From a virus: a stretch of 64,000 nt of DNA. The notes beneath the pieces are model-generated. The model made no database searches, was not told the DNA's origin, and worked only from the letters and a program-made list of their open reading frames with translations. A program made the position numbers and the translations under genes. Positions 1 to 41,885 of the stretch are shown here, piece by piece. Within the stretch, counting starts at the first letter, position 1. Each line of letters opens with the position of its first letter. The stretch lies in IMG/VR virus record IMGVR_UViG_3300034072_000514, positions 1 through 64,000 of that record; one strand, given 5' to 3'.

Positions 1-2
1 AG

Positions 3-753
3 CCGTACGCTACTATTGAGGAGCAGGTGATTTCTGGTGTACACCCGGTAGTGGCGGAATATATGCTACCTACGACCAAACCTCTGGCCCAGGGTGCCCG
101 CCTTGTGGTGCCCCATGTCCTACCCCCTCCCCCGCCCGCCCGGCCCCTACTTGGTACCGTTCTGGCCCAGGGTGAGGCCCTCTGGCCCGACCACCCGTAC
201 CTCCCCTACGTAGGTGGTCTAATTGAGCATGAAAGCTGCATTTCTCTGACTCATTCAAGGTGCTGGAGCCCTACGTCTCGTCTTAAGACAGAAAAGGAGG
301 AAGGCGCAGGCCTTGGGCAATTTCACCAGAGCTTGGAACCCTAAGACGGGTCAGCTAAGGTTTGATGTAGTCCAAGAGCTTATGGAGAGGTACCCTAAAG
401 AGCTTGGAGAGCTTTCATGGAGTAATATCTATCAGAGACCTGACCTTCAGATCATAGGTATCTATCTTAAGCTTAAAGAAAACTATGATCAATACAAATT
501 TACCAGAGAGCCTCTAGCGTTTGCTGATGCTGCCTACAACGGAGGTAATGCTGATGTTCGTAGGGAGATTCGCGCTTGTAAGTTAGGGAAGGACTGCGAC
601 CCTACAATCTGGTTTAATAATGTTGAACGCTTTTGCGTCAAGAAACCGGGCGCACATACTGGCGGTAGGTCAGCGTGTGAGATCAATAGATACCATGTTA
701 GAGATGTATTTAATCGTGCGGAGAAATACCGTGCAAGCTTAGGTAATAAATAA
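3..753 (+). CDS. SLT-domain lytic transglycosylase, 5'-truncated by the window edge. The reading frame breaks once, from the frame of 27..344 to the frame of 313..753.
   Basis: GGLIEHES (catalytic Glu) and GLGQF lie in the first frame and AAYNGG lies in the second. These three SLT signatures are therefore split over two overlapping ORFs. The first frame stays open back to nt 3. Confidence 0.7.
61..220 (+). repeat. GC-rich element, copy E1. It is a divergent copy embedded in the open SLT reading frame.
   Basis: G+C-rich island sharing ccccatg/tacccc/ttggtacc blocks with 42331..42468. A perfect 14-nt direct repeat tctggcccagggtg occurs at 83..96 and 161..174, exactly 78 nt apart. Confidence 0.6.
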
Positions 754-763
754 TATTACTTAC

Positions 764-804
764 TGGCCACTGATTCCTTAATTGGAGTTGGTGGCCAATT
801 TTTT
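764..804 (+). terminator. Rho-independent terminator after the SLT gene
   Basis: tggccac (764..770) pairs with gtggcca (791..797) and is followed by a run of six T. Confidence 0.6.
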
Positions 805-810
805 CGTATA

Positions 811-854
811 AAAAGTGAGAAAAATCATGTATCTATAATAGAAGAATCTTTTAA
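811..854 (+). promoter_or_regulatory. Conserved 44-nt early-region repeat, copy A (candidate phage-specific promoter)
   Basis: aaaagtgagaaaaatcatgtatctataatagaagaatcttttaa matches 1395..1438 at 42 of 44 positions. It lies directly upstream of an RBS and ATG. Confidence 0.5.
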
Positions 855-870
855 GAAGGAGTGATTCTCT

Positions 871-1089
871 ATGAGTTACGCTAATATCCCTGCTATCTTT
901 GCTGCTGTTTATTCTACTGACGCAAGCAACGAACAGTTCTTTAGCCTTAAAGACGCTAGTGGTAACTTGATGCCTGCTGCTTATCTTAAGGAAGCTCTAG
1001 CATTTGTCGGAGCAAATTCGGTTAATGAGCTCGCCTCAATTATCTCCGTGGTGACCACTACAGATATTGAACTCGAACTGCATGAATAG
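871..1089 (+). CDS. Hypothetical early protein (72 aa)
   Basis: ORF with an aaggag RBS 8 nt upstream. It ends in TAG, and the same frame stays open to 1317. Confidence 0.55.
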   Translation: MSYANIPAIFAAVYSTDASNEQFFSLKDASGNLMPAAYLKEALAFVGANSVNELASIISVVTTTDIELELHE

Positions 1090-1394
1090 ATTTGGGATAG
1101 CACGGAAGTCTGTGCTGTTGAAGGTATCAAAAGAGACGTGTCTACCTGCGACTTTACTTGGGTAGACCTATTTACAGGATATATAAATCTTGGAGACAAG
1201 ACTGTTCCGGTATTCTACACACAAAACGCGTGTCCGATTGCGATATACCTTAGCAACAAACATTTACCTGATTTAAAGGAATTGGCTGACTTCAATACGG
1301 TACTTAAACAATTTTAAATTTAACCAATTAGAAGTCGCTATGGGACTCGAGATTACCTCTCATAATAGACCACCTGCGCAGGAAATTGGGTCTA

Positions 1395-1438
1395 AAAACT
1401 GAGAAAAATCACGTATCTATAATAGAAGAATCTTTTAA
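1395..1438 (+). promoter_or_regulatory. Conserved 44-nt early-region repeat, copy B
   Basis: Differs from 811..854 at 2 positions. It is followed by aaggag and the ATG at 1452. Confidence 0.5.
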
Positions 1439-1451
1439 CCAAGGAGTTACT

Positions 1452-1781
1452 ATGACTGTGTCTATCATTATCGTTTTCGCTATTTTAGCCGTTGCCATGC
1501 TTGTTCTTGTTTTGGTTGGTTACTATCTTATTGTTAAGCTTACCAAACGTGTTAATGAGCTTACCGTGCTGTCTGCAAGTTTGGTTAAGTCAAAAGCAGA
1601 TCAGGACGCTTTGAATGAGATGTTGTCTGCTAGGATGGAAACCTATGGAGAGCGTATCAACTCTTTGCTCGAGAATATGCACAAAGTAGAAAATAGCATC
1701 TTGTCGATTAAATCGGCTTCCGCTACAGTTTCCATTATTAGAAAGCAAAAATCCTTAATCGACCGTGTGTTCAGCCGCTAA
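1452..1781 (+). CDS. Membrane-anchored coiled-coil protein
   Basis: ATG at 1452 follows an aaggag RBS. The N-terminal hydrophobic helix is VSIIIVFAILAVAMLVLVLVGYYLIV. Confidence 0.65.
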   Translation: MTVSIIIVFAILAVAMLVLVLVGYYLIVKLTKRVNELTVLSASLVKSKADQDALNEMLSARMETYGERINSLLENMHKVENSILSIKSASATVSIIRKQKSLIDRVFSR

Positions 1782-1842
1782 TATTTAGCATTTAGTATTT
1801 AATTTCCCTCTCTAAACCTTTTTAAACCAACTGGAGTAAATC

Positions 1843-2145
1843 ATGACTTTCACTATTATCTTCCTGATCGTCGCCCTCTTCGCGCTCATCTCTATCTGGC
1901 TCAGCTTGGATGCCTTCAAGAAAGGCCAGACCGTCTTGACTGCTGTCTACATGTTCTGTGGTATTACGTATACAACTATCGTAATGACTAATAACATCAT
2001 TGCGGCGGTAGCTGCAGTCAATGCAATCGGATACGCCCTTGTCGGGTGTGCCATAGGTGCCATTCTGGGCTTTGCAGTGATGTTCGCTATTGACTGGATT
2101 AAGGAAATGAAGAACAAGCAGCAGGGTCTTGTATATGAAGTGTAG
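1843..2145 (+). CDS. Small multi-pass membrane protein
   Basis: 100-aa ORF that is hydrophobic throughout. RBS is ctggag. Confidence 0.65.
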   Translation: MTFTIIFLIVALFALISIWLSLDAFKKGQTVLTAVYMFCGITYTTIVMTNNIIAAVAAVNAIGYALVGCAIGAILGFAVMFAIDWIKEMKNKQQGLVYEV

Positions 2146-2284
2146 GCTAGCGCGCTGACTATTACAGTCTGTGCAATTATAGTGGGTGTCTTGTTTACTT
2201 AGCAGTAGCAAGATACTCTCATAAGTTAACAAACCTTATCCCTTATTTGTTTAGTCTAATCAACCAATTTATTAGGAACCAATC

Positions 2285-2632
2285 ATGACTATCATTATCG
2301 CTCTGCAAATTGCCTGCATCATTGTGGCTCTGTTCTTCGGCTTTCGCGCACTCCTTGGGGTTATCACAAAGAGGTCTCTCCTTGCTAAGACCACCTCGTT
2401 GGTGATTAATAGCTCTATTGCTGCTGCCGGGGTTTATGTGGCAAAGGCTGGCATGCTTACCTGGATGTCTTGGTATGCCGGTATAAGCGTGGCTCTGTTT
2501 CTTGCAGCACCACTGATTATATTTGTGTCTACCATTGTGATCCTGTTGGTGTACGCCAGCATTAAACTAGGGCGTAAGTTAGAACCAAAGGTTTATGGGT
2601 ATGCTAGACCAGAGTATACTACAGCTTTCTGA
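2285..2632 (+). CDS. Small multi-pass membrane protein
   Basis: 115-aa ORF with three or more hydrophobic segments. Confidence 0.65.
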   Translation: MTIIIALQIACIIVALFFGFRALLGVITKRSLLAKTTSLVINSSIAAAGVYVAKAGMLTWMSWYAGISVALFLAAPLIIFVSTIVILLVYASIKLGRKLEPKVYGYARPEYTTAF

Positions 2633-2697
2633 CACTTAGCGACACCGCGGGCTGCTGAGAGGCGGCCTGCTATTATATCAACTCAATTTTAAAAATT

Positions 2698-3771
2698 ATG
2701 AGCACTGCCACCGCTAAAAAGCCTTTAATCAATTTGAATGCTTACCACTCTAACCTTGGAGTATTTATCCATCCTGTTTCTACTTACCAATCATTTGTTA
2801 AGTGGCCTGATAGTGTTCGGATAAATGGTGTACTTGTAACTGAGTACCCAAAGTTTGGTATTAATAATAACATCATCAAACTGGAATCTATTGATAATCT
2901 CAAGGTAGAAATTCTTACTCCGGGTAGAGATACTCAAGTAGGCTGGCAGCTTATGGATGAGTCCCTTGCGTCAGATAAGATACCGCTGACTTTGACCATG
3001 GAGGAGCTGCACAAGTCATGGTGTGAGGAAGATGACGACTACTTGCTATCTGGCCCAAAACAAAAGCTAGGTGCTCTTTATAAGGAAGCTTACACAAGGT
3101 CAGAGGATGCTTATGTTGAAGCAGAGATCTCTATAACAAACAAAGGAGCTTATCAGATCGATAACTTGTACTCCTCTAACTTCTCAATTAAGCTCGCAAC
3201 TAGCCAGCCTGGGGCTACAGTAGTACAACTGAAAGATATCGCTACTTTTGAAGAGATAGCTAAGATGCTGGTTCCTGAGCTTCTTATTGCAAATGCGCCA
3301 TGCAGGTTATCCGGTACGTTCTTGTTTAATATTATTAGAGCTTACATTCGAGATAACATAAACTCTAAGTATGCAAAGATAACAGCAGATTCAAACAATT
3401 ACTTTATAGTAGCTAGGCGAGTGATAACTCAACCAACACCCTTTAGGAAAGAAGTATTAACTAGAGGAGGTAATAGCTATAGGCCGCCGAGGTTTCAGTC
3501 ATCCTTCGCTAATGAGAAGTATGTGCAGATATTCTCTATGGCATCGCCAGACGCTTACGGTAGCTACCACTCATACGGGCTAGTAAGCGGCTTGGAAGCG
3601 AATAGCCTAGTAGACCTCTATGAGAAGCTAGGAGAAATGTTAAACTTCATTATTCGAGAAATCAACCTGTCAGTATCGAATTGCCCTCACTGCGAAGGGA
3701 CTGGTTTGGTAGAGGCAGGTAATGCGTATACATGGGCAGAAGTCAAGGAAAAGCTCATGAAAAGTGAGTAA
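2698..3771 (+). CDS. Hypothetical protein with a C-terminal DnaJ-type CxxCxGxG motif
   Basis: 357-aa ORF. NCPHCEGTGLVE lies near the C-terminus. Confidence 0.7.
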   Translation: MSTATAKKPLINLNAYHSNLGVFIHPVSTYQSFVKWPDSVRINGVLVTEYPKFGINNNIIKLESIDNLKVEILTPGRDTQVGWQLMDESLASDKIPLTLTMEELHKSWCEEDDDYLLSGPKQKLGALYKEAYTRSEDAYVEAEISITNKGAYQIDNLYSSNFSIKLATSQPGATVVQLKDIATFEEIAKMLVPELLIANAPCRLSGTFLFNIIRAYIRDNINSKYAKITADSNNYFIVARRVITQPTPFRKEVLTRGGNSYRPPRFQSSFANEKYVQIFSMASPDAYGSYHSYGLVSGLEANSLVDLYEKLGEMLNFIIREINLSVSNCPHCEGTGLVEAGNAYTWAEVKEKLMKSE

Positions 3772-3800
3772 ATCTTTGTATCTATAACAGAAGACTTAAT
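3760..3800 (+). promoter_or_regulatory. Early-region repeat, degenerate copy C
   Basis: aaaagtgagtaaatctttgtatctataacagaagactta aligns with copies A and B. It overlaps the stop codon of the upstream gene. Confidence 0.35.
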
Positions 3801-3845
3801 AAAGCTTCTATCTTTTTTGTTAATTATCTTAAATCAGGAGTGATT

Positions 3846-4349
3846 ATGCGTATTGATGAAATTAAGTTGGGTCGTGCTTATCGTGACATCCTGTCGGGTA
3901 TCTCTGGCTACGCAGTAGGTTTCATGGAAACAATGAACGGCAACAAGCAGGTTGAGATTCGTCCATTTCCCACGAAAGAATCGATACAAGAAGGTAAGAT
4001 GTTGGATGGTTATTACATTGATACCCAGACTCTTGTAGACGCACAATATGCCCCGCTTGTATCTACAGAGCCTCAGGTGCTTAACGATATCCAGGTAGGG
4101 GACCGGGTAGAAGACATTGCTACAGGCATCATAGGTACAGCTACTGCAAGGATTATCTCTTTGAATGGCTGCATTGGATTTAATGTTCCTGTTAAGAATC
4201 TACAAACAGATATTTTTGAGTCTTACTATGTAGACCAAGTCCGCTTGGTAGTTGTTAAGCGTATGGAGACCCCTTTGAAGACTACAACAAAGGTAAATGG
4301 GTGTAACCCTGGAGGGCTATCCTCTATTGCTCGTCGCAAAGAAGTCTAG
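3846..4349 (+). CDS. Hypothetical protein
   Basis: ATG at 3846 follows an aggagtg RBS, in the frame of ORF 3840..4349. Confidence 0.65.
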   Translation: MRIDEIKLGRAYRDILSGISGYAVGFMETMNGNKQVEIRPFPTKESIQEGKMLDGYYIDTQTLVDAQYAPLVSTEPQVLNDIQVGDRVEDIATGIIGTATARIISLNGCIGFNVPVKNLQTDIFESYYVDQVRLVVVKRMETPLKTTTKVNGCNPGGLSSIARRKEV

Positions 4350-4386
4350 TCAGATCTGTCAATAAATTTTTAAATTAGGAGCAATT

Positions 4387-4770
4387 ATGCTTGAACATGC
4401 TAATGTGTATGAAGATATCATCTCTGGTATTGCTGATCTCATTGTAACAGCAGGTAATGCCGTTAGAGAGCGAACAGCGGTGGCTCAGTCAAAGAACGTA
4501 GGGTACGAAGCATCGGCCTACTGCAATTACGTAGTTGCCGCCTCTTTAGCTATTGACTTGACTAAGCCGCATACGCCAATTAAGCAGCCACCTAGTATTC
4601 CGGCTCAAATCCAGAAGGATATTAGAGTAATTGACTCTAGTGAAATTGCTAAGGATTGGGATGCGGGTCTGCTAGAGATGCTGGATATGTACACACAGTT
4701 GTGCGAGACTCATGCTGAGATCCTGGAAAGACATCGGCTGATGAGTTCTATTGCTGCTAAAGCTGATTAG
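4387..4770 (+). CDS. Hypothetical protein
   Basis: 127-aa ORF with a taggag RBS. Confidence 0.6.
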   Translation: MLEHANVYEDIISGIADLIVTAGNAVRERTAVAQSKNVGYEASAYCNYVVAASLAIDLTKPHTPIKQPPSIPAQIQKDIRVIDSSEIAKDWDAGLLEMLDMYTQLCETHAEILERHRLMSSIAAKAD

Positions 4771-4855
4771 TAAAGGCTTATAAGTGAGGCTTCTATGAGG
4801 CCTTACTTGTGATGGTTTTGTTTAGTGTTAGTTCAACTTTAACTAGGAGTAAATT

Positions 4856-5170
4856 ATGATCGACCGTATTTTGTCGGCTATTGAATCGTTTGCAAAAAGC
4901 TTTGTGTTCGTTGAGAAGCTGTGCATTCGCTGGGAGTTGTTTGAATGTGCAATGGAAGAAAAAGATTGCGAGCGTTTAGAAAAGTATTTGCGATCTGTTT
5001 GTGTTTCGGAAGAGTCTATCGCTAAACTCTCCAACCCCATTAGGCGTAACGTGGAGAAATACCGCGCTAGCCTCATTGAAAGATGGAATATTATTAACCC
5101 ACAAAAACCCTTAAACCAAAGGAGCGTAAGCTATGAAAACCGCAATGATAGTGTTGAGGTCTCTAACTAA
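4856..5170 (+). CDS. Hypothetical protein
   Basis: 104-aa ORF with a taggag RBS. Confidence 0.55.
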   Translation: MIDRILSAIESFAKSFVFVEKLCIRWELFECAMEEKDCERLEKYLRSVCVSEESIAKLSNPIRRNVEKYRASLIERWNIINPQKPLNQRSVSYENRNDSVEVSN

Positions 5171-5401
5171 AGGAATTGATCCTGTAGACGTGGAGTCTCA
5201 TTCTGCTTGGGTTGATTAGAACAAAGCGGTAGAAAGCCACCGCAAACACCCGTCCACAACATCTGAGAGAGCGCTTAGACAATCAGTTACAAGGCTACAC
5301 TTGGCTATTGGTAAGCGTACTCAAAGAGAAACAAGTAGAGAAAAGCAAGTCAGTGAAGATAGTGGGCTTTCCTTTCTTTAACACACTAAGGAGCCAATGC
5401 T

Positions 5402-5536
5402 ATGGTACTACTCGCGATATTTCTAGTATTTTTGTTGGGTCTTCGTATCTCTTATTTATTAGGAGGAGCGAGGATGGTGCTTATAATTGGAGATATAGAT
5501 AATGCTGGTCATCTTAATCGTGGCGATGCTGCTTAA
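5402..5536 (+). CDS. Small membrane peptide (44 aa)
   Basis: AAGGAG at 5388..5393 lies 8 nt before the ATG. The N-terminus is hydrophobic (VLLAIFLVFLLGL). The ORF is below the track size cutoff. Confidence 0.4.
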   Translation: MVLLAIFLVFLLGLRISYLLGGARMVLIIGDIDNAGHLNRGDAA

Positions 5537-5603
5537 AGCTGCTCTAACAGTGTTTCTTGTTCGATCATTTCTTAAAAATCGTCCAGTGAAGTCTGGTAGC
5601 TAA
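5502..5603 (+). CDS. Small membrane peptide (33 aa)
   Basis: GGAG lies 8 nt upstream. The peptide contains LVILIVAMLLKAALTVFLV. Confidence 0.35.
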   Translation: MLVILIVAMLLKAALTVFLVRSFLKNRPVKSGS

Positions 5604-5634
5604 ACATTCGGTTAGAACAACAGAGGGAGTTGAC

Positions 5635-5811
5635 ATGGTGCTATTATTATTAGTTATGTTTCTGATAGTTCTCGCTTTAGGTGCGAAACTTGTGATTCAA
5701 CAGGCAAGGATAAGTGAGCAACTAAAAGAAGTAGCTAAGAATGTGGAGAATGTTTCTGCAGCTACCAAAGAAACAAAGGACCACGTAACGTCTTGGGAGG
5801 TAGAAAGTTAG
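5635..5811 (+). CDS. Small membrane-anchored protein (58 aa)
   Basis: RBS is gagggag. An N-terminal TM segment (VLLLLVMFLIVLALGA) is followed by a charged tail. Confidence 0.5.
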   Translation: MVLLLLVMFLIVLALGAKLVIQQARISEQLKEVAKNVENVSAATKETKDHVTSWEVES

Positions 5812-5855
5812 TTTAACCTCAAGGCCGGTGGATTGTAGATTAATAGGAGTATTAT

Positions 5856-6068
5856 ATGACCGTTACTTTTGCAATACTTATCGGTGTCGCTATTTTTGCT
5901 TTTCTGACTAACATTACATTTTTCGGTACTGTTATCTATATTGCAAAAATATTTAGCAATGTCATAGCGTGGACGATTGTCGCGCTTATTGGCTTGGGTG
6001 TCTTCAAGACGTTCAAGTGTTCTAGGAAGGCAGTTAACCATGCTGGCGCTGATCAAAGCCCAAATTAA
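5856..6068 (+). CDS. Small membrane protein (70 aa)
   Basis: ORF with a taggag RBS and two hydrophobic segments. Confidence 0.55.
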   Translation: MTVTFAILIGVAIFAFLTNITFFGTVIYIAKIFSNVIAWTIVALIGLGVFKTFKCSRKAVNHAGADQSPN

Positions 6069-6198
6069 CAAATTTTGGGGCTTTATGCTATTGTTCCTTA
6101 TGGTGACAATAGTTTTTAGCAAGGTAATATTTGTGCTACTCATCATGATTGGCCTACTTTATCTTGCTTGTGTGTTTTTTGAAGTTCTGACTTTTTAA
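6040..6198 (+). CDS. Small membrane protein (52 aa)
   Basis: In-frame ATG within ORF 5977..6198. The sequence after KFW is hydrophobic. Confidence 0.45.
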   Translation: MLALIKAQINKFWGFMLLFLMVTIVFSKVIFVLLIMIGLLYLACVFFEVLTF

Positions 6199-6204
6199 AC
6201 CAAC

Positions 6205-6246
6205 GCCCTCTGCCGAAAGGTGGAGGGCTTCTCTCTTTTATTTTTT
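6205..6246 (+). terminator. Rho-independent terminator
   Basis: 10-bp stem gccctctgcc/ggtggagggc with a GAAA loop, followed by a T-rich tail ttctctcttttatttttt. Confidence 0.7.
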
Positions 6247-6355
6247 CTATGAATACATATACGGAGAATTGTTATTACAGCCGCTATTGCAATCATTGGA
6301 GGTATTATTGCAAAATTCATTATCCGTGAGCTATGGAATTGGCTCAAAGTAATCA

Positions 6356-8020
6356 TTGATCGAAAACTCCATAATTTCTAATATAATGTTATCTGAAGAG
6401 CAACAAATACTAGCTGAATCAGACGCAAGCCCTCAAGAGCAAGAACCTGTCACTATTTTGGACTGCTTAGTTGCTGATCTTGCTAAACGGCTTTCAGAGC
6501 TGCGAGCAGACAGACAACGGTATACGCACTACCTAAAAGGTACCGATCCAGCCCATCTTATGGAGCTTGGCTATGTATCTCTGCTTGCTGGTATCCAAAA
6601 GAAGGGCACTCTAGTCGAAGTCTGCAGCTCTATTGGTCGGCAGGTTATGGCTATGAAGAAGATGCCGCTAGAATCAGTAGTGGAAGTACATACTGGTTGG
6701 TTTATTCTGATTAGCTTTCTAGAATTAGATATCATCCACTTCTACACAAAGAAGTCATACCACAACAACCGAGCAAGCCAGTACCCTACTTATCACATCT
6801 CAGTGAAGGATTGGGCAGCTATTGGTCAGTTGATGACTATGATTAACAAGGAGCGTGTAGGAGCAATCTTACCCTCTACTAAAGTTCCTGATCCTTGGAC
6901 TTCTGTTTATCACAGCTCGGGAGCTACTATCGTAAAGAAGATTCACTCTTCGATACGTGGGCAACTATCTCCAGAAAAGCAGCCTATACTGTTTAACAAT
7001 CTAAACAAGCTACAGGCAACCGGCTGGCGAATTAATCCTGAAACCTTTTCTGTTTATGAGCAATGTTTGAAGCAGGCTAGCGGGAAGAAGCCTCCGGTGG
7101 ATTCCCCGTTTAAGTTCAGTTCTGAGGAAGACCCGAACCGTAGAGAATCTTTGTTCAGAGAGGCAGAAACAATTAGCAACATCGCTAAGTTGTTCTTGCA
7201 TGAGCCATTCTACCATATGTACAACTATGATTTTCGGTATCGGTTGTATGTTATGACCGCTTACTTACATGAGCAGTCATCTGACAATGCCAAGGGTCTG
7301 CTATTATTTAATGAAGGCGTCCCGTTAGGTAAGGATGGTTTGTATTGGTTAAAGATTCATTGTAGCAACACCTGGGGTCACGACAAGGACACTAAGGAAG
7401 GTCGTGCAAACTTTACATCCAATAATATCAAAGTTTGGATTGAGTACGCTAAAAATCCGCTGATTAACCGTGGTTGGATGAAAGCAGATGCTCCATTTTC
7501 TTTCCTAAGCTGCTGCTTTGAGCTCAAGAAGCTTAGGGACTGGCTCATAGCTGGAAAGAGTATTGAAACATTTGTTAGTCATCTACCTTGCTATATCGAC
7601 GGCTCAACCAATGGTACTCAGCATCTGACAGCGATGTCTAAGGATGAGTCGATTGCACATCTTGTCAACCTGGTTCCGACGGAGCTTCCAGGTGATCTTT
7701 ATATGTACATCGCGGGGCATACCTGGAATACTATTAAGGAGGCGTATGATCGAACACCAAAAGAGATTGTAGCTAAGTTTCAATCTGTCTGGGATGAAGG
7801 CCGCCGATTGCATTCGCTATATGCATCTGCTCCGCCAAAGTCAGAACAGCGTGTTGCGGCTTATGCTAAAGTTTCAGAGTGGCGTAACCATAATCGGGAC
7901 ATCCGAGAAGCTCTCTTTCCGGTATACTGGATGGGCGTTGACAACCCTAAAGACCAGCGTAAAGCAGTTAAGCGCCCTGTGATGACTCTCGGTTACGGAG
8001 GCACAGCCTACGGCATGGGT
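6356..8020 (+). CDS. T7-like single-subunit RNA polymerase, exon 1
   Basis: DFRYRLY (T/DxxGR region), YIDGSTNGTQH (motif A) and KRPVMTLGYGG (motif B). The start is uncertain (TTG 6356 or ATG about 6386). The exon ends at the U at 8020. Confidence 0.9.
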
Positions 8021-8800
8021 TAATATAGGCTCATGTAAAATCTCGTGAATTCGGTGAACAGCCTCTTAGAGGCCAATACCGAGCCAAGCTTAACCGATAA
8101 GGTTTTGAAGGTGTAACGACTATTCCGAAAGGAAGTACATCCAAGTGGATGGAAGCGCGAGACAGCGTTAAAGCTGAAGAGATAGTCTGATCTATACAGT
8201 AATGTATAGCGGTTGCGTCGCTGTAACCGGAGAATATATGGAAGAGATTTGGAAGAGTGTAGATAATTACGAAGGGGCGTATGAAGTCTCTTCTTTAGGT
8301 AGAATTAGAAGTTTAGATAGAGTAGCCGTAGACGGCTCTAATATTAAAGGTAGATTACTAAAGTTTTCATATGATGGGTCAGGATACCATAAAGTGAACT
8401 TATTTAAATTTGGTGAAAATCAATATTTAAAAGTCCATAGGTTAGTAGCTATTGCATTTGTTCCTAATCCTGAAGGTTTACCACAAGTGAACCATAATGA
8501 TGGTAACAAAGAAAATAATTTCTATAAGAATTTAATTTGGTGCACTAATCAAACAAGTACGATCCATGCATACGAGAATAAGTTAACTACCAATCAAGGC
8601 GAAACACATTATAAAGCTAAGTTAGATAAAGAAAAAGTTTTATTTATTAGAGCTTCTACTTTAAGTGTAGCTGAGCTTTCTGATAAATTAGGCGTATCTA
8701 GCTCCAGTATAAGAGATGTGATTAATCGTAGGTATTGGAAATCTGTGTAAATTAAGCGACGCAACGGTGTTAGCCTAACAAACTGACATGAACATAAATG
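8021..8800 (+). mobile_element. Group I intron in the RNAP gene
   Basis: It interrupts motif B. Joining 8020 to 8801 gives ...YGMG|QQVNDDT in frame. The core gaattcggtgaa..gtaacgactat..gatagtctgatctata is shared with the intron at 17650..18433, and the intron ends in ...cataaatG. Confidence 0.8.
8238..8750 (+). CDS. Intron-encoded HNH homing endonuclease (NUMOD4 + HNH + C-terminal HTH-like)
   Basis: WKSVDNYEGAYEVSSLGRIRS, then HRLVAIAFVPNP..VNHNDGNKENN..NLIW. The ORF is looped out between complementary segments ggttgcgtcgc and gcgacgcaac. Confidence 0.85.
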   Translation: MEEIWKSVDNYEGAYEVSSLGRIRSLDRVAVDGSNIKGRLLKFSYDGSGYHKVNLFKFGENQYLKVHRLVAIAFVPNPEGLPQVNHNDGNKENNFYKNLIWCTNQTSTIHAYENKLTTNQGETHYKAKLDKEKVLFIRASTLSVAELSDKLGVSSSSIRDVINRRYWKSV

Positions 8801-9415
8801 CAACAAGTGAATGATGATACCAAAGGTATGTCTGAATACTTGCGGGATAAGGAACCAATGTGGGGTACTATGCTTGGCAAGCTAGTCTATAAAACCTGTT
8901 ACGAAAAGCTACCTGGACCTGCGCGGATGCTTGCACTGTTTAAGCACCTTGCGGACATCTCTAATGCTCGCGGTGAGTATCTGAGCTGGACAGTACCTAT
9001 CACCAATGCTCCGGTTGTGCAAGCGTATCGGATGCCTGTAGCTAAGCGAACTAAGCTTACTTATGGGGAAGAAGAGTTGAAAGTGCAGATCGAAGCCTGG
9101 GATGAAGCAAGGCTGAATGAGTCTGCGTCTAGCACTGGTGCAGCTCCAAATATCGTCCATAGCTTTGACGCGGCTCATCTTGCTATGGTGCTTGACTCAG
9201 CAGATTTCCCTATGTCTGTTATTCATGACTCATTTGGTTGTCATGCGGGTAATATGGATAAGCTTTTTGTGTTAGCTCGAAAGGAGTTCGTAGAATTTTA
9301 TGAAGTAGACCCACTCGCTCTGTTACTTGAGGAACTGATGGTTCCAGAGCTAATGCCTGAACGAGGTAACTTAGACATTTCTAAAATTATGGAAAGCGAC
9401 TATGCATTTCTCTGA
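8801..9415 (+). CDS. T7-like single-subunit RNA polymerase, exon 2
   Basis: Contains SVIHDSFGCH (motif C) and ends in ...DYAFL. Confidence 0.9.
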   Translation, partial: QQVNDDTKGMSEYLRDKEPMWGTMLGKLVYKTCYEKLPGPARMLALFKHLADISNARGEYLSWTVPITNAPVVQAYRMPVAKRTKLTYGEEELKVQIEAWDEARLNESASSTGAAPNIVHSFDAAHLAMVLDSADFPMSVIHDSFGCHAGNMDKLFVLARKEFVEFYEVDPLALLLEELMVPELMPERGNLDISKIMESDYAFL

Positions 9416-9635
9416 AGACGCTGCCGAGCGTAGACTTTCTTTATCTAAGTGTGTTAACAGAATTCGTGAAATTGTTAATGGTCAAGCTGATGAGCTAGTA
9501 AAGGCAATTTTACCGGAGGTATACAAAGGTATCTCTAGAATGATGGATGAAGGTGAGCTATCTACTGTAGTGCGCGTAGATTGGGAAAGTAATCACTTAA
9601 ACGCAACTGCACATAATAACTCAGGCGCTGCTTAA
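9402..9635 (+). CDS. Hypothetical protein
   Basis: 77-aa ORF overlapping the end of the RNAP gene. Confidence 0.5.
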   Translation: MHFSEDAAERRLSLSKCVNRIREIVNGQADELVKAILPEVYKGISRMMDEGELSTVVRVDWESNHLNATAHNNSGAA

Positions 9636-9706
9636 AGTAAACTATCACCTATTAGGACATTTTTTAGTTAAAGATCTACACACTTACAGCAACGTAATTT
9701 CACTAC

Positions 9707-10078
9707 ATGTTTTTACACGAGATGACTACAAATAATTCTATGGATAAACAGTGGTTGGCAGAGATTGCAGGAGAGATTAAGCGCAGCAAGAAGGTGTACC
9801 ATAGCTGCGCAGTAGCTGCGATACTAAAAGAAGCCAAAGCTGCATTAACCACTATGCAGAGCACTCTTGTGAAGGAGGTCAATTTCTCAGTAACTTTGCC
9901 CGATAAACCAAGTAAAGACTTAGAGGTTAGCTATAGAGAAATCTTGTCGGCTGCGAATGAAGCGGTATCACCTAACTTTAGAATTGTGTGCTTGCAAGAT
10001 ATCAGGGGTAAGACACTAGAGGCTCCAGGTCACTCCGTATCTATAGGCTGTAAGGTTTATCTTGTTGATAGTTTGTGA
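9707..10078 (+). CDS. Hypothetical protein
   Basis: 123-aa ORF. The start codon is uncertain. Confidence 0.55.
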   Translation: MFLHEMTTNNSMDKQWLAEIAGEIKRSKKVYHSCAVAAILKEAKAALTTMQSTLVKEVNFSVTLPDKPSKDLEVSYREILSAANEAVSPNFRIVCLQDIRGKTLEAPGHSVSIGCKVYLVDSL

Positions 10079-10089
10079 TAGAGGTGTAA

Positions 10090-10425
10090 ATGCCATTTGA
10101 GTATTACACAGCTTTGGAAGTCGCGGAGAAGCACAACAGATTCAAGGCGCAGCAACAAAAGATTGCGCTAAGGAAATTGCTTAGTACTATTCATACGGAT
10201 AATGCAGTCTTAGTACTTACATATGTGCTTGACGCTATTGAGCGGTTAGTAGCCTGTGAGGCCTTCTCCGCGGAAGAGAACTATGAGTATGTGCTTATCT
10301 ACGAATGGGCGGACATCTCAGCAGAAGAGCTGGATACGGCTATAAAGTCCCTTAATACTCTAGGCTACTCCACTAGCATAGAATCACACTCATCGATAGT
10401 AAGATTAAAAGTATCTTGGAGCTAA
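10090..10425 (+). CDS. Hypothetical protein
   Basis: 111-aa ORF with a gaggtg RBS. Confidence 0.6.
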   Translation: MPFEYYTALEVAEKHNRFKAQQQKIALRKLLSTIHTDNAVLVLTYVLDAIERLVACEAFSAEENYEYVLIYEWADISAEELDTAIKSLNTLGYSTSIESHSSIVRLKVSWS

Positions 10426-10427
10426 TA

Positions 10428-10709
10428 ATGCATCTTAGCGAACTCAAAGAGCTAAATGAGAGCTTGTTTAAGAATATACCTTCAGCAAAAACTGCAAGAT
10501 TTAAAGAGTTTGAAGAGCGTGTATACGTAAAGATACGTGAAATGTCTTTCCGTGGGGCTCAGGTGGGATTCGTTAAATCACATGATATCGATTGTGGTAC
10601 TGCAATTGAATTCAGAGATCTTGTGAATAGCATCCATATGAGCCTACTGCCATACTTTAAACTAACCCAAGTTAGGTCGGATGTCCGCATTGACGCTATA
10701 CAAATCTGA
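10428..10709 (+). CDS. Hypothetical protein
   Basis: ATG at 10428 lies just after the upstream stop codon. Confidence 0.55.
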   Translation: MHLSELKELNESLFKNIPSAKTARFKEFEERVYVKIREMSFRGAQVGFVKSHDIDCGTAIEFRDLVNSIHMSLLPYFKLTQVRSDVRIDAIQI

Positions 10710-10881
10710 GAAAGATCGCTATGAAGACCTGCTTAAGAATTTTGACTGGCAATTCGAATTTAGCAGTGAGCACTCAGTATGGCGGGAATACAAAGACAAG
10801 CTGGCAGAGCTTAAGAGGCTACAGCCGAAAGTAGATCCAGACCGCACTATCTGGAATAAATATTACCAATCGATGTTTTAA
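10681..10881 (+). CDS. Hypothetical protein
   Basis: 66-aa ORF overlapping the end of the previous gene. Confidence 0.5.
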   Translation: MSALTLYKSEKDRYEDLLKNFDWQFEFSSEHSVWREYKDKLAELKRLQPKVDPDRTIWNKYYQSMF

Positions 10882-10883
10882 TA

Positions 10884-11267
10884 ATGCAAATTTCTGAAAT
10901 TATCCCTAATGTGGCTGAACTGCAAGACGCCTTAACACGCAGCTTCAAGGAAGGGCGCGAAAAGATCATTAAATCCGCTGAGGAGAGTCTCGCTAACCAA
11001 ATCATGTTTAGGTTGTTCGCTGCGGCACAACAATGTAAGCGCTCAGTAGATATCGACTGGCAATCAATGCTAGAAGATTACCCGACAGTATTCCAGAGAA
11101 AAGCTATTAGATCGGTGCACGAGGTACTGCTGCAAAAGGGATATCTTGTATATGCTGAAGGTATGAAAGGTGTTGCTTGGAGGCTGAGATCTAGTAAGCA
11201 TGCAAGCAGTATGACCATTATTGTGCCTGGTCAAGTAGAAATTGAAGAGCCGGAAAATAAAGAGTAA
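10884..11267 (+). CDS. Hypothetical protein, last gene of the early block
   Basis: 127-aa ORF. Confidence 0.6.
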   Translation: MQISEIIPNVAELQDALTRSFKEGREKIIKSAEESLANQIMFRLFAAAQQCKRSVDIDWQSMLEDYPTVFQRKAIRSVHEVLLQKGYLVYAEGMKGVAWRLRSSKHASSMTIIVPGQVEIEEPENKE

Positions 11268-11350
11268 ACATGACAAAGACCTTGATAGCCTTTAATTTAG
11301 GCGTAATGTGGGTGCTTTAATAGCGAGCCTAACAGTAAAATACCTACTTT

Positions 11351-11520
11351 AGCGAGTCTGCTCGGTGGCGGCGACCTCAGGGGTGACCCGCCTGGTACCC
11401 AGGTTGGTCCAGCTAGGTACCCCGGCGCGGGTGGGATGGGGGTACCCATGGGCCGGGTCAACGGCTCGCCCTAGGCCCAACCACCAGGGGACGCTAAAGC
11501 CCCAGTGGCCTCCCCCGGTT
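11351..11520 (-). repeat. GC-rich element, copy E2, inverted relative to E1 and E3
   Basis: Hand count gives about 70% G+C over 11381..11440. 11433..11451 is the exact reverse complement of 42358..42376 (19/19). 11391..11417 is the reverse complement of 42392..42418 (25/27). It contains three GGTACC palindromes. Confidence 0.65.
11481..11510 (+). promoter_or_regulatory. GACGCTAAAGC motif, copy A (candidate phage-RNAP promoter ahead of the replication block)
   Basis: caccaggggacgctaaagc is identical over 19 nt to the copy near 20207..20225. The 11-nt core recurs at 42612..42622. All copies are followed by agtggc or aggtggc. Confidence 0.4.
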
Positions 11521-11742
11521 AATAATAGTATTATTATATTATTGTTAACCATATCTCTTAGTGGTACATACAGTTCCCTGTAGTATCCCTCTCTTGTTAG
11601 CTGTTAGTTTACTTACTAATAACTTACTATGTAGAGCTTACCTGCTGTTAGCTTGCAGTAGGTATTATTCTCATCTAACCTCCCTAATTGCTGTTTTAGA
11701 AGGATAATTTATGTTTAAGTTCTAATAAGGTTTATAAAGCAT

Positions 11743-12303
11743 ATGGCAATTCTCAAGAACATTGAAGGTCGTTGGTTCAAGCTGTCTCCTAATCGTCCAG
11801 CTCCTGCATTTGGTGATTCAGGCCCTAAATGGGAGTTTCAAGCAATTGCTCGTACTAAAGAGCAAATGCAAGAATGGAAAGACCTCGGCATCAATGTCAA
11901 GCCAGTTGAGGAAGATGGTAAAATTGTCTATAAGGCCCGCTTTCAGCGCCCAACTCACAAGCGCCCAAAAGACGGCAAACCTGCTGAGCCTAATGAGCCA
12001 GTGGAAGTTGTGAGTGGCCAGTTGACTCCACTTGATCCTCAGCTCATTGGTAACGGCAGTATTGTTAATATCGTGATCTTTCAATATGATTACGAAGTTA
12101 AGAGCAAGGATGGCAGGTCGAGCAAGAAGGGTAAGGGTACCATGCTCAAGAAGGTTCAAGTAAAGAAGCTTGTTCGTTATGAAGGAACGCCAGAGGAAGA
12201 CTTTGAAGAAGAAGACTTTGAAGAAGTTGAAGTCGCTGAAAAGGCAGAGAGCACTGCTACTAGCGGCAGCGGTGACGCTTCTTCTGAGGATGCAGACTTC
12301 TGA
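11743..12303 (+). CDS. T7 gp2.5-like single-stranded DNA-binding protein
   Basis: LIGNGSIVNIVIFQYDY resembles the gp2.5 OB-fold strand. The long acidic tail has a 15-nt tandem duplication (EEDFEEEDFEE) and the protein ends in ...EDADF. Confidence 0.65.
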   Translation: MAILKNIEGRWFKLSPNRPAPAFGDSGPKWEFQAIARTKEQMQEWKDLGINVKPVEEDGKIVYKARFQRPTHKRPKDGKPAEPNEPVEVVSGQLTPLDPQLIGNGSIVNIVIFQYDYEVKSKDGRSSKKGKGTMLKKVQVKKLVRYEGTPEEDFEEEDFEEVEVAEKAESTATSGSGDASSEDADF

Positions 12304-15266: not shown

Positions 15267-15782
15267 ATGAAAAACACAGTTTATATTGCAGGCCCTATGG
15301 AAGGCCTTTCTCAAAGTGAAATGACAGGCTGGCGAAAAGAATTTACAGAGCTTGCTAATGATCTTCATGTTGTGGACGTTAAAGACCCTACTCGCCGAAT
15401 CCCATTTCGATCAGATGACACGATTAACCAAGCTCGTATGGTGTTTCGTGCAGATCTAATGGATATTAACAACTCAGCAGTAGTCTTTCTTGATTTGCGG
15501 AAGGGTAAAGGCTACGCTTGGGGCACTGCTATGGAAGCTATGTATGCTTGGCAAGCTAATAAACCTTTGATTATCTGGACAAACCAAGAAGACCCCCGCC
15601 ATCCTTTTATTGAATCCATGGCTACAGCAGTAGTGCACAGTCTTCAAGATGGAGTTGAAAAAGTAATTGCGTTGATTGAGCCTCCTAAGCGAGAGGTACC
15701 TGACAGCGGATCTGCTGCCGAAGCTGTAGCAGCAATTTCTCCGAGCTTCTGGCCAAGTCTTTACCATACAAAGGTGCAGTGA
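15267..15782 (+). CDS. Nucleoside 2-deoxyribosyltransferase-like protein
   Basis: VYIAGPMEG...SAVVFLDL...GTAMEAMYAWQANKPLIIW pattern of the NDT/Rcl fold. Confidence 0.6.
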   Translation: MKNTVYIAGPMEGLSQSEMTGWRKEFTELANDLHVVDVKDPTRRIPFRSDDTINQARMVFRADLMDINNSAVVFLDLRKGKGYAWGTAMEAMYAWQANKPLIIWTNQEDPRHPFIESMATAVVHSLQDGVEKVIALIEPPKREVPDSGSAAEAVAAISPSFWPSLYHTKVQ

Positions 15783-17649: not shown

Positions 17650-18433
17650 CGAATGAGAGCGCAGTTTAAACCGGGAGAATTCGGTGAATCCCCGCTAGGG
17701 CAATACCGAGCCGAGCTTAAGTAGCAATACTTTTGAAGGTGTAACGACTATCCCGAAAGGGAGTACACTCAAGCGAGTGGAAGCACCCGGCATGAGAAAT
17801 CATGATGATATAGTCTGATCTATATAGTAATATATAGCTGTTGCCGCACAACAGAGAAATAAATGGAAGAAGTTTTTGTACCAATAACAAATTACGAAGG
17901 TATTTATGAAATATCGAATTTAGGTAGAGTCAAGAGTTTAGCCAGGGTATCTGCAAGCGGAGCTAAACTAGCACCAAAGATCTTAAAGACATCAGTCAAT
18001 GGCGCTGGTTACCTTAGCGTTTCGCTGTATAAAGGCGAAGGTAAGTGGACAACAAGAGTTCATTGCTTGGTAGCCGCTGCTTTTGTAGAAAATAAGAACC
18101 CCGCTAAATTCAATATAATAAACCACCTTGATGGAGACAAACTCAACCCTGCTAGCACAAACTTAGAGTGGAGCGACCACTCAGGCAACGCACTGCACAG
18201 CTACGCTAGCGGTTTAAGTAGTAACCAAGGTATAACTCACCGATCGAACAAGCTAACTGAAGATGAAGTTAGGTATATTAGATCACAAAAGGGATTGGTA
18301 CATATAGATGAGCTAACTAGTAAATTCAACGTACACCGCCAGACCATTTACGGTATTTGGCAAGGTAAGTACTGGAAGAGTTTGAAATAAGCGGCAACGG
18401 TAGTAATCTAGCGAATTACTGCGAACACAAATG
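17650..18433 (+). mobile_element. Group I intron in the DNA polymerase gene
   Basis: Joining 17649 to 18434 gives KPFLYA|FLFGGGADK, a complete Pol A motif B. The core is highly similar to the intron at 8021..8800, and the intron ends in ...cacaaatG. Confidence 0.8.
17863..18390 (+). CDS. Intron-encoded HNH homing endonuclease (NUMOD4 + HNH)
   Basis: ITNYEGIYEISNLGRVKS, then HCLVAAAFVENKNP..INHLDGDKLN..NLEW. Confidence 0.85.
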   Translation: MEEVFVPITNYEGIYEISNLGRVKSLARVSASGAKLAPKILKTSVNGAGYLSVSLYKGEGKWTTRVHCLVAAAFVENKNPAKFNIINHLDGDKLNPASTNLEWSDHSGNALHSYASGLSSNQGITHRSNKLTEDEVRYIRSQKGLVHIDELTSKFNVHRQTIYGIWQGKYWKSLK

Positions 18434-19380: not shown

Positions 19381-19653
19381 ATGACGTCCACTAAGATTGT
19401 GATTCTTGAAGTTCGTAGATATTTCCTTAAGACCTCTGATAGGATATTCGTTACTAAAAGTGGGGTCACTCGCGATCCTAGAAAGGCCTTGATGGAGGAG
19501 GTACCTAAATCTAACGGAAAGCGACCAGTAGCGCTTGCTATAAAAACTAAGATGCTATCTTTGCATAAAGGTACTATTTCTGAAAACATGGTTAAAATTA
19601 CTGATTTAGCTGAGGTCACTCAAGATGAGCCAATTATTGCAGAAGCCGCCTAA
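19381..19653 (+). CDS. Hypothetical protein
   Basis: ATG at 19381 within ORF 19369..19653. Confidence 0.5.
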   Translation: MTSTKIVILEVRRYFLKTSDRIFVTKSGVTRDPRKALMEEVPKSNGKRPVALAIKTKMLSLHKGTISENMVKITDLAEVTQDEPIIAEAA

Positions 19654-20155
19654 TAACATATTAAGAGCTTATCGAGGATGTAACTTATTCGAAGAGCTAA
19701 CTCAAACACAAAAAGAAGCGCGGTATAATGCGTTCTATATGCGATGTGCATTTAATGCTGCAGAGCTATCTTTCGCTACTAGGCGTAAGGTAGGCGCAAT
19801 TGCAGTTAGGCACGGTAACATTGTGGGTTTTGGTTTTAACGGCACTCCCGCTGGTGCTGCTAACCAATGTGAAGACGAATGTGGTAACACTTTGCCATCT
19901 GTTATACATGCAGAAGCCAACTTGATATCTAAGCTAAATATGCTGGGTATCATACTTTCTGAAGTTAGTATCTACGTAACTAAGGAGCCTTGTAAGAGTT
20001 GTGCTGGCCTAATAGTTAATGAGTTGGAGTATCTTGACAGCTCTAGCTTTAAACTATTTTTTGCGGAAAGCTCAAAAACTAAACCACAAGAAGGGTTGGA
20101 ACACTTATACCATCTAACAAAAGCACAAATTTTTAAGGTAGAAAAACCATGCTAG
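19625..20155 (+). CDS. dCMP (deoxycytidylate) deaminase
   Basis: Zinc-binding motifs HAEANLI and PCKSCAGLI. Confidence 0.8.
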   Translation: MSQLLQKPPNNILRAYRGCNLFEELTQTQKEARYNAFYMRCAFNAAELSFATRRKVGAIAVRHGNIVGFGFNGTPAGAANQCEDECGNTLPSVIHAEANLISKLNMLGIILSEVSIYVTKEPCKSCAGLIVNELEYLDSSSFKLFFAESSKTKPQEGLEHLYHLTKAQIFKVEKPC

Positions 20156-20868
20156 CTCTGATAGACGGCGACCCTCTCGTGTACACCGCGAGCTGGGGCA
20201 AGGCCACACCAGGGGACGCTAAAGCACACCTCAGGTGGCTGGTGAACGATGCGATTGAGACTACTATGGCTGAGGACTATCTTATAGCAATAGGTAACAG
20301 GGATAGCTCACGTAATTTCAGGTGTGAGCTGTTTCCTTTCTATAAGAAGTCTGCTACACGGCAAGGCTCTAAGGAGAAGTTGCAAGACTGGTTTCCTAAG
20401 ATCAAAGACTGTCTTGCCGGGATGCTTAATGTTTATGAGTGCGATGGGTACGAGGCTGACGATCAGCTGCGTATCTGGGCAGGTGAAGCTGAAAGAAGCT
20501 CTGACCCTTTTGTGATACACTCTATTGATAAAGATCTGGACGCTATTGTTGGATTACACTACAACTCTAAGCGGAAGGAATTTTACAAAGTACCGCAGGA
20601 ATACGCTGATTGGTTCTTTTGGAAGCAATGTCTTATGGGAGACTCCATTGACAATATTCCAGGGATACCTCGCGTAGGTCCTGTTACCGCAGATAACATT
20701 TTAGCTCCCGGCAAGAACTGGGATGACTGGGAACGACTCACAGTAACTGCCTACAAAGGTAAATACGGTGATCAGTGGTGGGAGTACCTTATGGCAAATG
20801 CTAGATTGCTTCATATCTGGCGCTTTCATAATGACCACTTCCAACTTGACAAGGCTAAGTACGACTAA
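20149..20868 (+). CDS. 5'-3' exonuclease / flap endonuclease
   Basis: LIDGDPLVY, YEADDQL, IDKDL and the H3TH segment GDSIDNIPGIPRVGPVTA. Confidence 0.85.
   Translation: MLALIDGDPLVYTASWGKATPGDAKAHLRWLVNDAIETTMAEDYLIAIGNRDSSRNFRCELFPFYKKSATRQGSKEKLQDWFPKIKDCLAGMLNVYECDGYEADDQLRIWAGEAERSSDPFVIHSIDKDLDAIVGLHYNSKRKEFYKVPQEYADWFFWKQCLMGDSIDNIPGIPRVGPVTADNILAPGKNWDDWERLTVTAYKGKYGDQWWEYLMANARLLHIWRFHNDHFQLDKAKYD
20205..20240 (+). promoter_or_regulatory. GACGCTAAAGC motif, copy B, located inside the FEN coding sequence
   Basis: 19-nt identity with the intergenic copy A, followed by tcaggtggc. Confidence 0.3.
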
Positions 20869-41857: not shown

Positions 41858-41885
41858 CTTTTATTTTGCTATATTTTGGAGGCCT

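Follow-up and report, generated by a model that had tools for sequence, protein, structure and literature searches.

The window analysed here, a 64,000-nucleotide (nt) stretch of viral DNA (positions 1 to 64,000 of IMG/VR record IMGVR_UViG_3300034072_000514), carries two genes predicted to encode single-subunit RNA polymerases (RNAPs) of the T7 type. RNAP1 lies at 6356..9415, in a block of small early genes; RNAP2 lies 42.8 kilobases (kb) downstream, adjoins the portal region and is fused to a MuF head-protein domain. All open reading frames (ORFs) retained in the window are on the + strand, and two classes of short promoter-like motif are distributed around RNAP1, one upstream and the other mostly downstream. 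These features suggest a phage that runs its own two-step transcription, with a virion-borne RNAP2 reading the early genes and an early-encoded RNAP1 reading the remainder.

RNAP1 appears in the raw sequence as two + strand ORFs, 6356..8023 (555 amino acids (aa)) and 8798..9415 (205 aa), with a 182-aa ORF in between. When 6356..8020 (exon 1, aa 1–555) is joined to 8801..9415 (exon 2, aa 556–759), a single polypeptide of 759 aa results, for which TTG at 6356 and ATG at 6386 are the two candidate start codons. The intervening 8021..8800 (+ strand), just past motif B, is a group I intron (Rfam RF00028, 71 bits; gathering score 50) that contains at 8202..8750 (+ strand) an ORF matching the NUMOD4 and HNH_3 homing endonuclease families of Pfam. 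The junction, after U8020 and G8800, is colinear with the uninterrupted gene of roseophage DSS3_VP1 (44019|44020), and splicing there restores the family consensus GYGGTxYGMGQQV without insertions or deletions (indels). A megablast search of 6000..10000 against phage records returned only a 90-nt match to a Rhizobium phage (query 2070–2159), inside this intron.

The joined protein matches Pfam RNA_pol (PF00940; E = 6e-72, aa 323–734) and T7 RNAP (E = 3e-47, 163 bits), and is 26–29% identical to the enzymes of Xp10 and of Ralstonia and Pelagibacter phages. Exon 1 supplies D292 (of a T/DxxGR-like motif), D415 (motif A) and K539 and Y547 (motif B), and exon 2 supplies H675, D698 (motif C) and a C-terminal YAFL; D415, K539, Y547, G548, H675 and D698 align with T7 D537, K631, Y639, G640, H784 and D812, and YAFL aligns with the FAFA-type tail of T7 RNAP. 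Judged by these alignments, RNAP1 is a T7-type single-subunit RNA polymerase and a clear member of the family. The first-pass annotation, made from the sequence without database searches, had described a spliced gene of about 760 aa bearing DFRYRLY, YIDGSTNGTQH, KRPVMTLGYGG and VIHDSFGCH; all of this holds (the motifs lie at aa 292, 413, 539 and 695), and the junctions are now placed to the base. About 110 nt upstream of the gene lies a terminator-like hairpin with a T-run (6205..6245, + strand), which is kept in relative L274 (at about 805–850; RNAP1 72% identical) with both sides of the stem changed. It may be an attenuator or an RNA 3′ end inside the early unit, throttling read-through into RNAP1.

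RNAP2 is likewise split, into an ORF at 49184..52630 (1148 aa) that contains ENDASSSG (D1079) and one at 53390..54397 that contains IHDAFF (D1397). Joining 49184..52627 (exon 1, + strand, aa 1–1148; D936 of DGRGR, D1079 of motif A, K1147 of motif B) to 53393..54397 (exon 2, + strand, aa 1149–1482; Y1155-G of motif B, H1371, D1397 of motif C) gives a protein of 1482 aa. Between them, 52628..53392 (+ strand) is a group I intron within motif B (RF00028, 86 bits) with an HNH_3 homing endonuclease ORF (Pfam) at 52835..53371 (+ strand). Across the 52627|53393 junction the protein reads LAKAAKA|QNMVSFYGAG, the same as the consensus LAKAAKAQNMVSFYGAG of 27 homologues and without indels, in agreement with the uninterrupted homologue P0001 (1483 aa, 86% identical). 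The N terminus matches Phage_Mu_F (PF04233) with 40.9 bits against a cut-off of 29.6 (aa 135–237; 49586..49894, + strand), and the polymerase module, which begins at about aa 688 (from about 51245, + strand), takes up more than half of the protein. MuF genes normally come after the portal gene; the order here is portal (47014..48591, + strand; 41% identical to the DSS3_VP1 portal protein), one 165-aa ORF, RNAP2 at 49184, a match to a Clp-type protease family and the major capsid gene. The annotation had already pointed to a polymerase in the virion module, about 40 kb from the first and with ENDASSSG and IHDAFF. That observation is correct, and the intron and the MuF fusion are new to it.

The polymerase half of RNAP2 is very divergent (23–24 bits to T7 RNAP). 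Exon 2 by itself matches PF00940 with 24.3 bits (cut-off 22), and the same family is precomputed for most full-length RNAP2 homologues. In alignments of 27 and 46 sequences that extend to 21% identity, D936-G-R-G-R, D1079, K1147, Y1155-G, H1371 and D1397 are fully or almost fully conserved, so RNAP2 is predicted to be an active polymerase. An AlphaFold model of aa 688–1482 (predicted local distance difference test score 87.9, predicted template-modelling (TM) score 0.83) has T7 RNAP (E = 2e-19, TM 0.6) and mitochondrial RNAPs as its best PDB matches in Foldseek, over about 800–900 columns; a T7-type fold is predicted for this part with high confidence. In full-length family members the module forms the C-terminal part of 1400–2000-aa proteins, and it is the best-conserved part. 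Only 124 RNAP2-type clusters are found in 1.84 billion representative proteins, and from their sequences the MuF-fused polymerases look like a self-contained clade.

The introns of RNAP1 and RNAP2 are both in or near motif B, about 10 codons apart in the alignment, and in EBPR siphovirus 1 (L276, 24445–25296) an HNH gene interrupts the RNAP2 homologue (30% identical) at that same point (gp47/gp48/gp49). Motif B thus appears to be a recurrent target of homing elements.

Three copies of a repeat of about 45 nt lie at 806, 1390 and 3755 in the window, against 0.03 expected by chance. They contain the early motif, AAAAAGTGAGAAAA-N8-ATCTATAAT with G or A as the next base: E1 (810..839, + strand; AAAAAGTGAGAAAA-ATCATGT-ATCTATAAT, next ATG at 871), E2 (1394..1423, + strand; AAAAACTGAGAAAA-ATCACGT-ATCTATAAT) and a weaker copy, E3 (3760..3788, + strand; AAAAGTGAGTAAA-TCTTTGT-ATCTATAAC, 71% identical to E1 over 49 nt). 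Directly upstream of E1 is a terminator-like hairpin with a T-run (764..803, + strand; a 14-bp stem, then ATTTTTT). The same layout, a hairpin and T-run abutting the motif, recurs in relatives (GGCCTTTTTTATCAAAAAAAGTGAGAAAA), where the first copy usually abuts the terminator-like hairpin closing the tail genes and 2–4 copies lie within a few kb upstream of RNAP1, DSS3_VP1 included. When 2.9 million viral contigs were scanned for exact matches, 109 stretches came up, and 78 of the 80 examined are from this family. We gathered 148 distinct instances, all with an 8-nt spacer; across 65 RNAP1 loci, 72 copies lie upstream of the gene, and none inside it, downstream of it or on the other strand. Just downstream of TATAAT, a short hairpin of varying (covarying) sequence is present in 72 of the 148 instances, compared with 7 of 148 shuffles, and recalls the 5′ stem-loops of T7 late transcripts. 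In some relatives (L176, L190 and L195) an early motif precedes, in place of an ORF, about 70 nt of conserved GC-rich sequence (AGAACCTTAGATTGGGGGGTGTAGC...GGCCAGTCTCGCAGTCCAGAGGTAG), which could be a small RNA.

The second motif, with the core ..GACG(C/T)TAAAG.., was found first in DSS3_VP1, where it reads AGG(G/T)(G/T)(A/G)CG(T/C)TAAAGA (also given as AGG(G/T)(G/T)(A/G)CGTTAAAGAGGG) and occurs in 16 copies over the replication and structural genes; the search used intergenic seeds only. Many relatives carry it as AATA(C/G)CTGACGTTAAAGAA. At 33 of 38 loci the first copy lies 17–242 nt past the RNAP1 stop codon, and the copies in RNAP1 loci number 55 downstream, 10 upstream (where the flank includes preceding late genes) and 7 inside RNAP1. 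The window's own variant, AGG(G/T)GACGCTAAAGC, emerged through closer relatives and has three exact + strand copies, against 0.02 expected. These score 22–26 bits in a weight-matrix scan, compared with 10.6 for the best match on the − strand. M1 (11486..11500, + strand, AGGGGACGCTAAAGC) lies some 2 kb past RNAP1, where it is part of a conserved noncoding element rich in GC and has AT-rich sequence after it; M2 (20211..20225, + strand, AGGGGACGCTAAAGC) is in the replication block, within the 5′–3′ exonuclease ORF; and M3 (42608..42622, + strand, AGGTGACGCTAAAGC) is in the 420-nt gap immediately before the module of packaging, head and other structural genes. The common form ATASSTGACGTTAAAGA does not occur in the window even when 3 mismatches are allowed, and AATAGTTATCTATAAGGA, found upstream of the major capsid gene in relatives, is absent from it. 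GTCTTTAA was also considered as the window's motif, and was dropped with 6 copies on the + strand versus 7 on the − strand.

The GC-rich element itself is 71 nt long and present twice in the window, at 11387–11457 and, inverted and 31 kb away, at 42352–42422 (85% complementary). On the + strand a second-class motif and then 200 nt of AT-rich sequence come after each copy, and the element is also found downstream of RNAP1 in L271 and L274. The 'ORFs' at 11365..11707 are probably not genes. A promoter-like motif followed by an AT-rich stretch resembles the primary replication origin of T7.

Compared as profiles, the RNAP1 and RNAP2 families are 17% identical over 623 columns, which rules out a recent duplication; on sequence grounds the two are ancient paralogs, both with intact catalytic motifs. 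The annotation had named two outcomes that would have told against its proposal, recent and interchangeable paralogs or a catalytically dead enzyme, and neither is what the identity and the intact residues indicate. It had also called the cascade N4-like. Neither RNAP1 nor RNAP2 has significant sequence similarity to N4 gp50 or gp15/gp16: phmmer gives E = 0.02 between RNAP2 and the N4 mini-virion RNAP (vRNAP) in a six-sequence database, which is not significant, a PDB sequence search with RNAP2 returned no N4 vRNAP match at E ≤ 1, and the 50 best fold matches of the RNAP2 model do not include N4 vRNAP. N4 orthology of either polymerase is ruled out by these sequence and fold searches. What survives of the likeness is the logic of two RNAPs and two motif classes; N4 kinship, the giant vRNAP, the heterodimer and the opposite-strand late genes do not. 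None of three defining features of the N4 system that we tested is found, and membership in that system is rejected.

The closest sequenced phages are the roseophages DSS3_VP1 and DSS3_PM1 (Naomviridae, genus Noahvirus), both of which have both polymerases (RNAP1 47% and RNAP2 46% identical). In DSS3_VP1, gp080 is the RNAP1 homologue and gp108 (1463 aa, annotated 'head morphogenesis') is the same MuF–polymerase fusion; unlike in the window, both RNAP genes are uninterrupted in the two roseophages, and DSS3_VP1 has two copies of the early motif. About 30 colinear proteins, 25–56% identical, are common to the window and DSS3_VP1, among them DNA polymerase, Dcd-type deaminase, exonuclease, primase-helicase, ribonucleotide reductase, terminase, PhoH, portal, major capsid and tail proteins and the tape measure. 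By this shared gene content and order, the window phage appears to be a distant relative that falls within or beside Naomviridae; at the DNA level it has no match to the two roseophages. The tape measure, tail and major capsid homologues also agree with the earlier description of the genome as of siphovirus type, and DSS3_VP1 looks like a siphovirus according to its describers (PMC8323127).

Beyond these phages, each polymerase is represented by at least 200 protein clusters, and IMG/VR holds 588 stretches with RNAP2 and 310 with RNAP1. At least five IMG/VR contigs are in both locus lists, and for six further pairs of RNAP1 and RNAP2 protein matches the longest contig is of equal size in both. 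Gene content thus indicates that the pairing is conserved across a large phage family. EBPR siphovirus 1, considered as a test of the pairing, is uninformative: it has the RNAP2 homologue, with no RNAP1 or motifs in 50 kb of a partial 54-kb record. No relative of RNAP2 was found in 185,579 bacterial and archaeal species-representative genomes, which fits a strictly lytic group. The family is reported to be abundant in seawater and under-sampled owing to its unusual DNA (PMC12669031).

We propose that virion-borne RNAP2 and early-encoded RNAP1 form a cascade that gives the phage its own two-step transcription, and we put the probability of this reading at roughly 0.6. RNAP2 would be made late and placed in the capsid at the portal by its MuF/gp7-type domain; SPP1 gp7, the one protein of this kind for which such a location is known, binds the portal and is present in 1–2 copies per capsid (PMC5576092). 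Injected into the cell with the DNA, RNAP2 would initiate at the early motifs at 810, 1394 and 3760, just past the terminator that closes the late genes. The early transcripts, judging by position, would span the small early genes (including a Gad1-type anti-defence gene) and RNAP1, whose transcript would first have to lose its group I intron. From the second motifs at 11486, 20211 and 42608, RNAP1 would go on to read the replication and structural genes, and with them the RNAP2 gene for the next generation. The cascade draws support from the two motif classes, which separate around RNAP1 in the manner expected of two polymerases acting in succession. RNAP1, like the T7 enzyme, seems to be responsible for middle and late genes alike. 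Nothing points to a further class of late genes that depends on the host, since all genes are on a single strand and second-class motifs extend as far as the structural genes. Which polymerase reads which class is our inference from position and timing.

We found no paper describing this arrangement in the open-access literature and bioRxiv; a preprint on an Endozoicomonas phage with two RNA polymerases concerns an unrelated phage, and a 2025 single-particle study of the family (PMC12669031) mentions no RNA polymerase. A wider, joint reading seems to us evenly poised between right and wrong: that a large and abundant group of marine and freshwater siphoviruses, Naomviridae and their relatives, at least some of them with deoxyuridine (dU) DNA, is fully independent of host RNAP and uses two single-subunit enzymes, of which the MuF-delivered starter reads its own 30-nt promoter and belongs to a previously unrecognised, deep-branching T7-type lineage.

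Several observations weigh against the proposed cascade. In RNAP1 the T/DxxGR motif reads DFRYRLY (7229–7249, aa 292–298), with Tyr for the Gly of the consensus DFRGRIY; the D and both R are retained, and the Y change is also found in the closest relative, T7 and most of the family having DxRGR. Expression of either polymerase would require its intron to be spliced out, as we assume it is. Convincing copies of the second motif number only three in the window, and the first lies 2 kb past RNAP1, not directly after it as in most relatives. A MuF domain means capsid placement, and ejection is not established even for SPP1 gp7. The papers on DSS3_VP1 (PMC8323127, PMC12697855) make no mention of RNA polymerase. 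Finally, the early motif ends in a perfect TATAAT, which is compatible with use by host RNA polymerase.

This last point leads to the strongest of the alternatives, in which the phage is organised like T7: host RNAP would read the early motifs, as it does T7 A1–A3, RNAP1 would be responsible for all remaining transcription, and the RNAP2 in the capsid would have another job, such as pulling in the genome, priming replication or boosting late transcription. The perfect TATAAT followed by a purine speaks for it, as does the layout, which is that of T7: two to four strong promoters open the early region, and the polymerase gene follows. Since a polymerase must be present at time zero, the reader of the early motif should be either the host enzyme or an injected one. 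However, AAAAAGTGAGAAAA stands 8 nt from ATCTATAAT in all 148 instances, which is not the −35 position of sigma-70, and an extended −10 TG is lacking; the early region shows no excess of sigma-70-like sites (16 found in 1..12000 versus 26 expected); and the 30-nt motif is nearly invariant among phages whose proteins are 40–50% identical, more easily explained by a phage reader than by varied host sigma factors. These three observations favour a conserved, phage-encoded reader, for which the capsid-borne RNAP2 would be the obvious candidate, and its invariant catalytic residues, which mark it as an active polymerase, also count against the T7-like scheme. Pelagibacter phage Kolga (L275) bears on the question from both sides. 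It has an RNAP1-like polymerase (29% identical) and a 633-aa MuF protein that matches the first 334 aa of RNAP2 only, without the polymerase module, so it must start another way; yet it has neither promoter-like motif. Kolga, which also has thymidylate synthase, is a possible natural 'one-polymerase' relative by gene content, and was considered as a natural control (MuF without polymerase), for which its RNAP1 is too distant to weigh much. On balance we hold the T7-like organisation to be unlikely, while giving it more credit than any other alternative.

It is much less probable that the roles of the two enzymes are swapped or shared, with RNAP2 reading GACG(C/T)TAAAG and RNAP1 reading GTGAGAAAA..TATAAT, or with both reading both. 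Such an exchange is conceivable given that the motifs are paired with their polymerases by position and timing. Nevertheless, RNAP1 lies downstream of the early motifs, in most relatives with no second motif between, so a swapped RNAP1 could not activate its own gene; the early motif never occurs after RNAP1, which would be odd for an enzyme expressing the remaining ~50 kb; and 17% identity makes a common specificity unlikely. Least probable of all is that RNAP2 is mainly a structural head protein with a vestigial or non-transcriptional polymerase module: every database that names the family does say only 'head morphogenesis / minor capsid protein', but the catalytic residues are invariant down to 21% identity, the predicted T7-type fold is complete, and the module is more than half of the protein and its most conserved part.

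DSS3_VP1 and DSS3_PM1 substitute dU for deoxythymidine in their DNA (PMC8323127; enzymes in PMC12697855). They have an HD-type dTMP phosphatase (Dtm), and share with the window a homologue of the Dcd deaminase; the window's Dcd-like protein, of the dCMP/dCTP-deaminase family, is encoded at 19625..20155 and is 35% identical to that of DSS3_VP1. No Dtm homologue was found in the window, and for this reason dU-DNA is unproven here; the 25 Pfam families listed from a scan of 95 ORFs include neither thymidylate synthase nor dUTPase. A nucleoside 2-deoxyribosyltransferase-family protein, present in relative L271 too, is encoded at 15267..15782. The gene set is compatible with a non-canonical pyrimidine in the DNA and is no proof of one.

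Other features of the window concern its early region and its mobile elements. The early gene at 2698..3771, which lies between E2 and E3, has a product homologous to the Gabija anti-defence protein Gad1 (PF25705, E = 9e-35). No transfer RNA (tRNA) gene was found in the window; L271 has two tRNA-like stretches downstream of RNAP1. A third group I intron (17581–18540, 54.6 bits) lies in the DNA polymerase gene and carries a NUMOD4/HNH ORF (17863..18390). A probable fourth, at about 27176–27835, lies in the gene for the small subunit of ribonucleotide reductase; it ends like the other introns, and its sub-threshold score (31 bits) is explained by the HNH ORF (27243..27722) that sits within it. 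The window would then hold four related introns in all, each in a conserved enzyme gene. Outside the introns there are two possible free-standing homing endonucleases, a SegE-type GIY-YIG domain at 22159..22596 (E = 2e-19) and the uncharacterised ORF 41811..42302, inside which four perfect tandem copies of the 15-nt unit GTAACTCAAATCTAA (42187–42246) encode a repeated SNSNL peptide.

If the wider reading is right, a MuF fusion would be a general route by which a phage injects its own transcription starter, and not only toxins. The two enzymes with their two promoters would also form a new orthogonal polymerase–promoter pair, which may tolerate or prefer dU templates; should the link to dU hold, it could help to explain how uracil-containing genomes are expressed, in parallel with PBS2 and AR9. 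The 'head morphogenesis' and 'minor capsid' labels could be corrected across at least 200 protein clusters and 588 IMG/VR stretches, and the two motifs can be targeted at once in DSS3_VP1 and DSS3_PM1, which are in culture.

A virion RNAP followed by a second phage RNAP is known from N4, the jumbo phages phiKZ and AR9, crAss-like phages and P23-45, and each of these cascades revealed a new polymerase and a new way to start an infection. The arrangement proposed here would, if true, be a fifth solution, with two T7-type enzymes and a starter delivered through fusion to a MuF head protein. Like N4, the phage would use a virion T7-type RNAP for its early genes and an early-encoded T7-type RNAP for the next class, with few early promoters, placed at the start of the early region. 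The enzymes themselves differ: N4 vRNAP (gp50) has 3500 aa and no MuF domain, whereas RNAP2 has 1482 aa and an N-terminal MuF, and N4 RNAPII is a heterodimer of gp15 and gp16, whereas RNAP1 is a single polypeptide. So, probably, do the promoters: in the early region of N4 these are DNA hairpins upstream of the start, and the conserved part of the candidate early promoters here is a 30-nt sequence with fixed spacing. N4 (Schitoviridae) is a podovirus, unlike the siphovirus-type phage of the window. Its late genes are read by host RNA polymerase from the other strand (PMC4496689).

RNAP1 is in the same polymerase family as the enzymes of T7, other Autographiviridae and the siphovirus Xp10, which have a single T7-type RNAP. 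T7 has its promoter phi1.1A just past gene 1, as most relatives of the window phage have the second motif just past RNAP1; T7-type phages, however, have no second, virion polymerase, and host RNAP transcribes their early genes. The jumbo dU-DNA phages AR9 and PBS2 have virion and non-virion RNAPs and are independent of host RNAP (PMC9209446, PMC7598289). Their RNAPs, by contrast, are multisubunit and of cellular type, and their genomes exceed 200 kb; the parallel is suggestive.

With respect to delivery, polymorphic toxins and polyvalent fusions of the MuF class have an N-terminal MuF domain, are encoded beside the portal gene and bear a C-terminal enzymatic cargo thought to be carried in the capsid (PMC5576092, PMC5512222). 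The cargoes described there are toxins or host-modifying enzymes, mostly of temperate phages, whereas here the cargo would be a polymerase; the passages searched in the two papers mention no RNA polymerase cargo.

Closer in logic than N4 is the Thermus phage P23-45, in which the virion RNAP gp96 is fused to the tape measure and gp64 is the non-virion RNAP (PMC10770324). P23-45 too is a siphovirus. Its virion RNAP, delivered as part of a structural protein, reads the first genes, including that of the second RNAP, and the phage has two promoter motifs, one for each enzyme. It differs in that both of its enzymes are of the two-barrel type, kin of cellular RNAPs, whereas RNAP1 and RNAP2 are of the T7 type; in its carrier, which is the tape measure instead of a MuF protein; and in its late genes, which use host RNAP. 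The studies of P23-45 followed the same line of reasoning as ours and confirmed it by experiment (PMC10770324).

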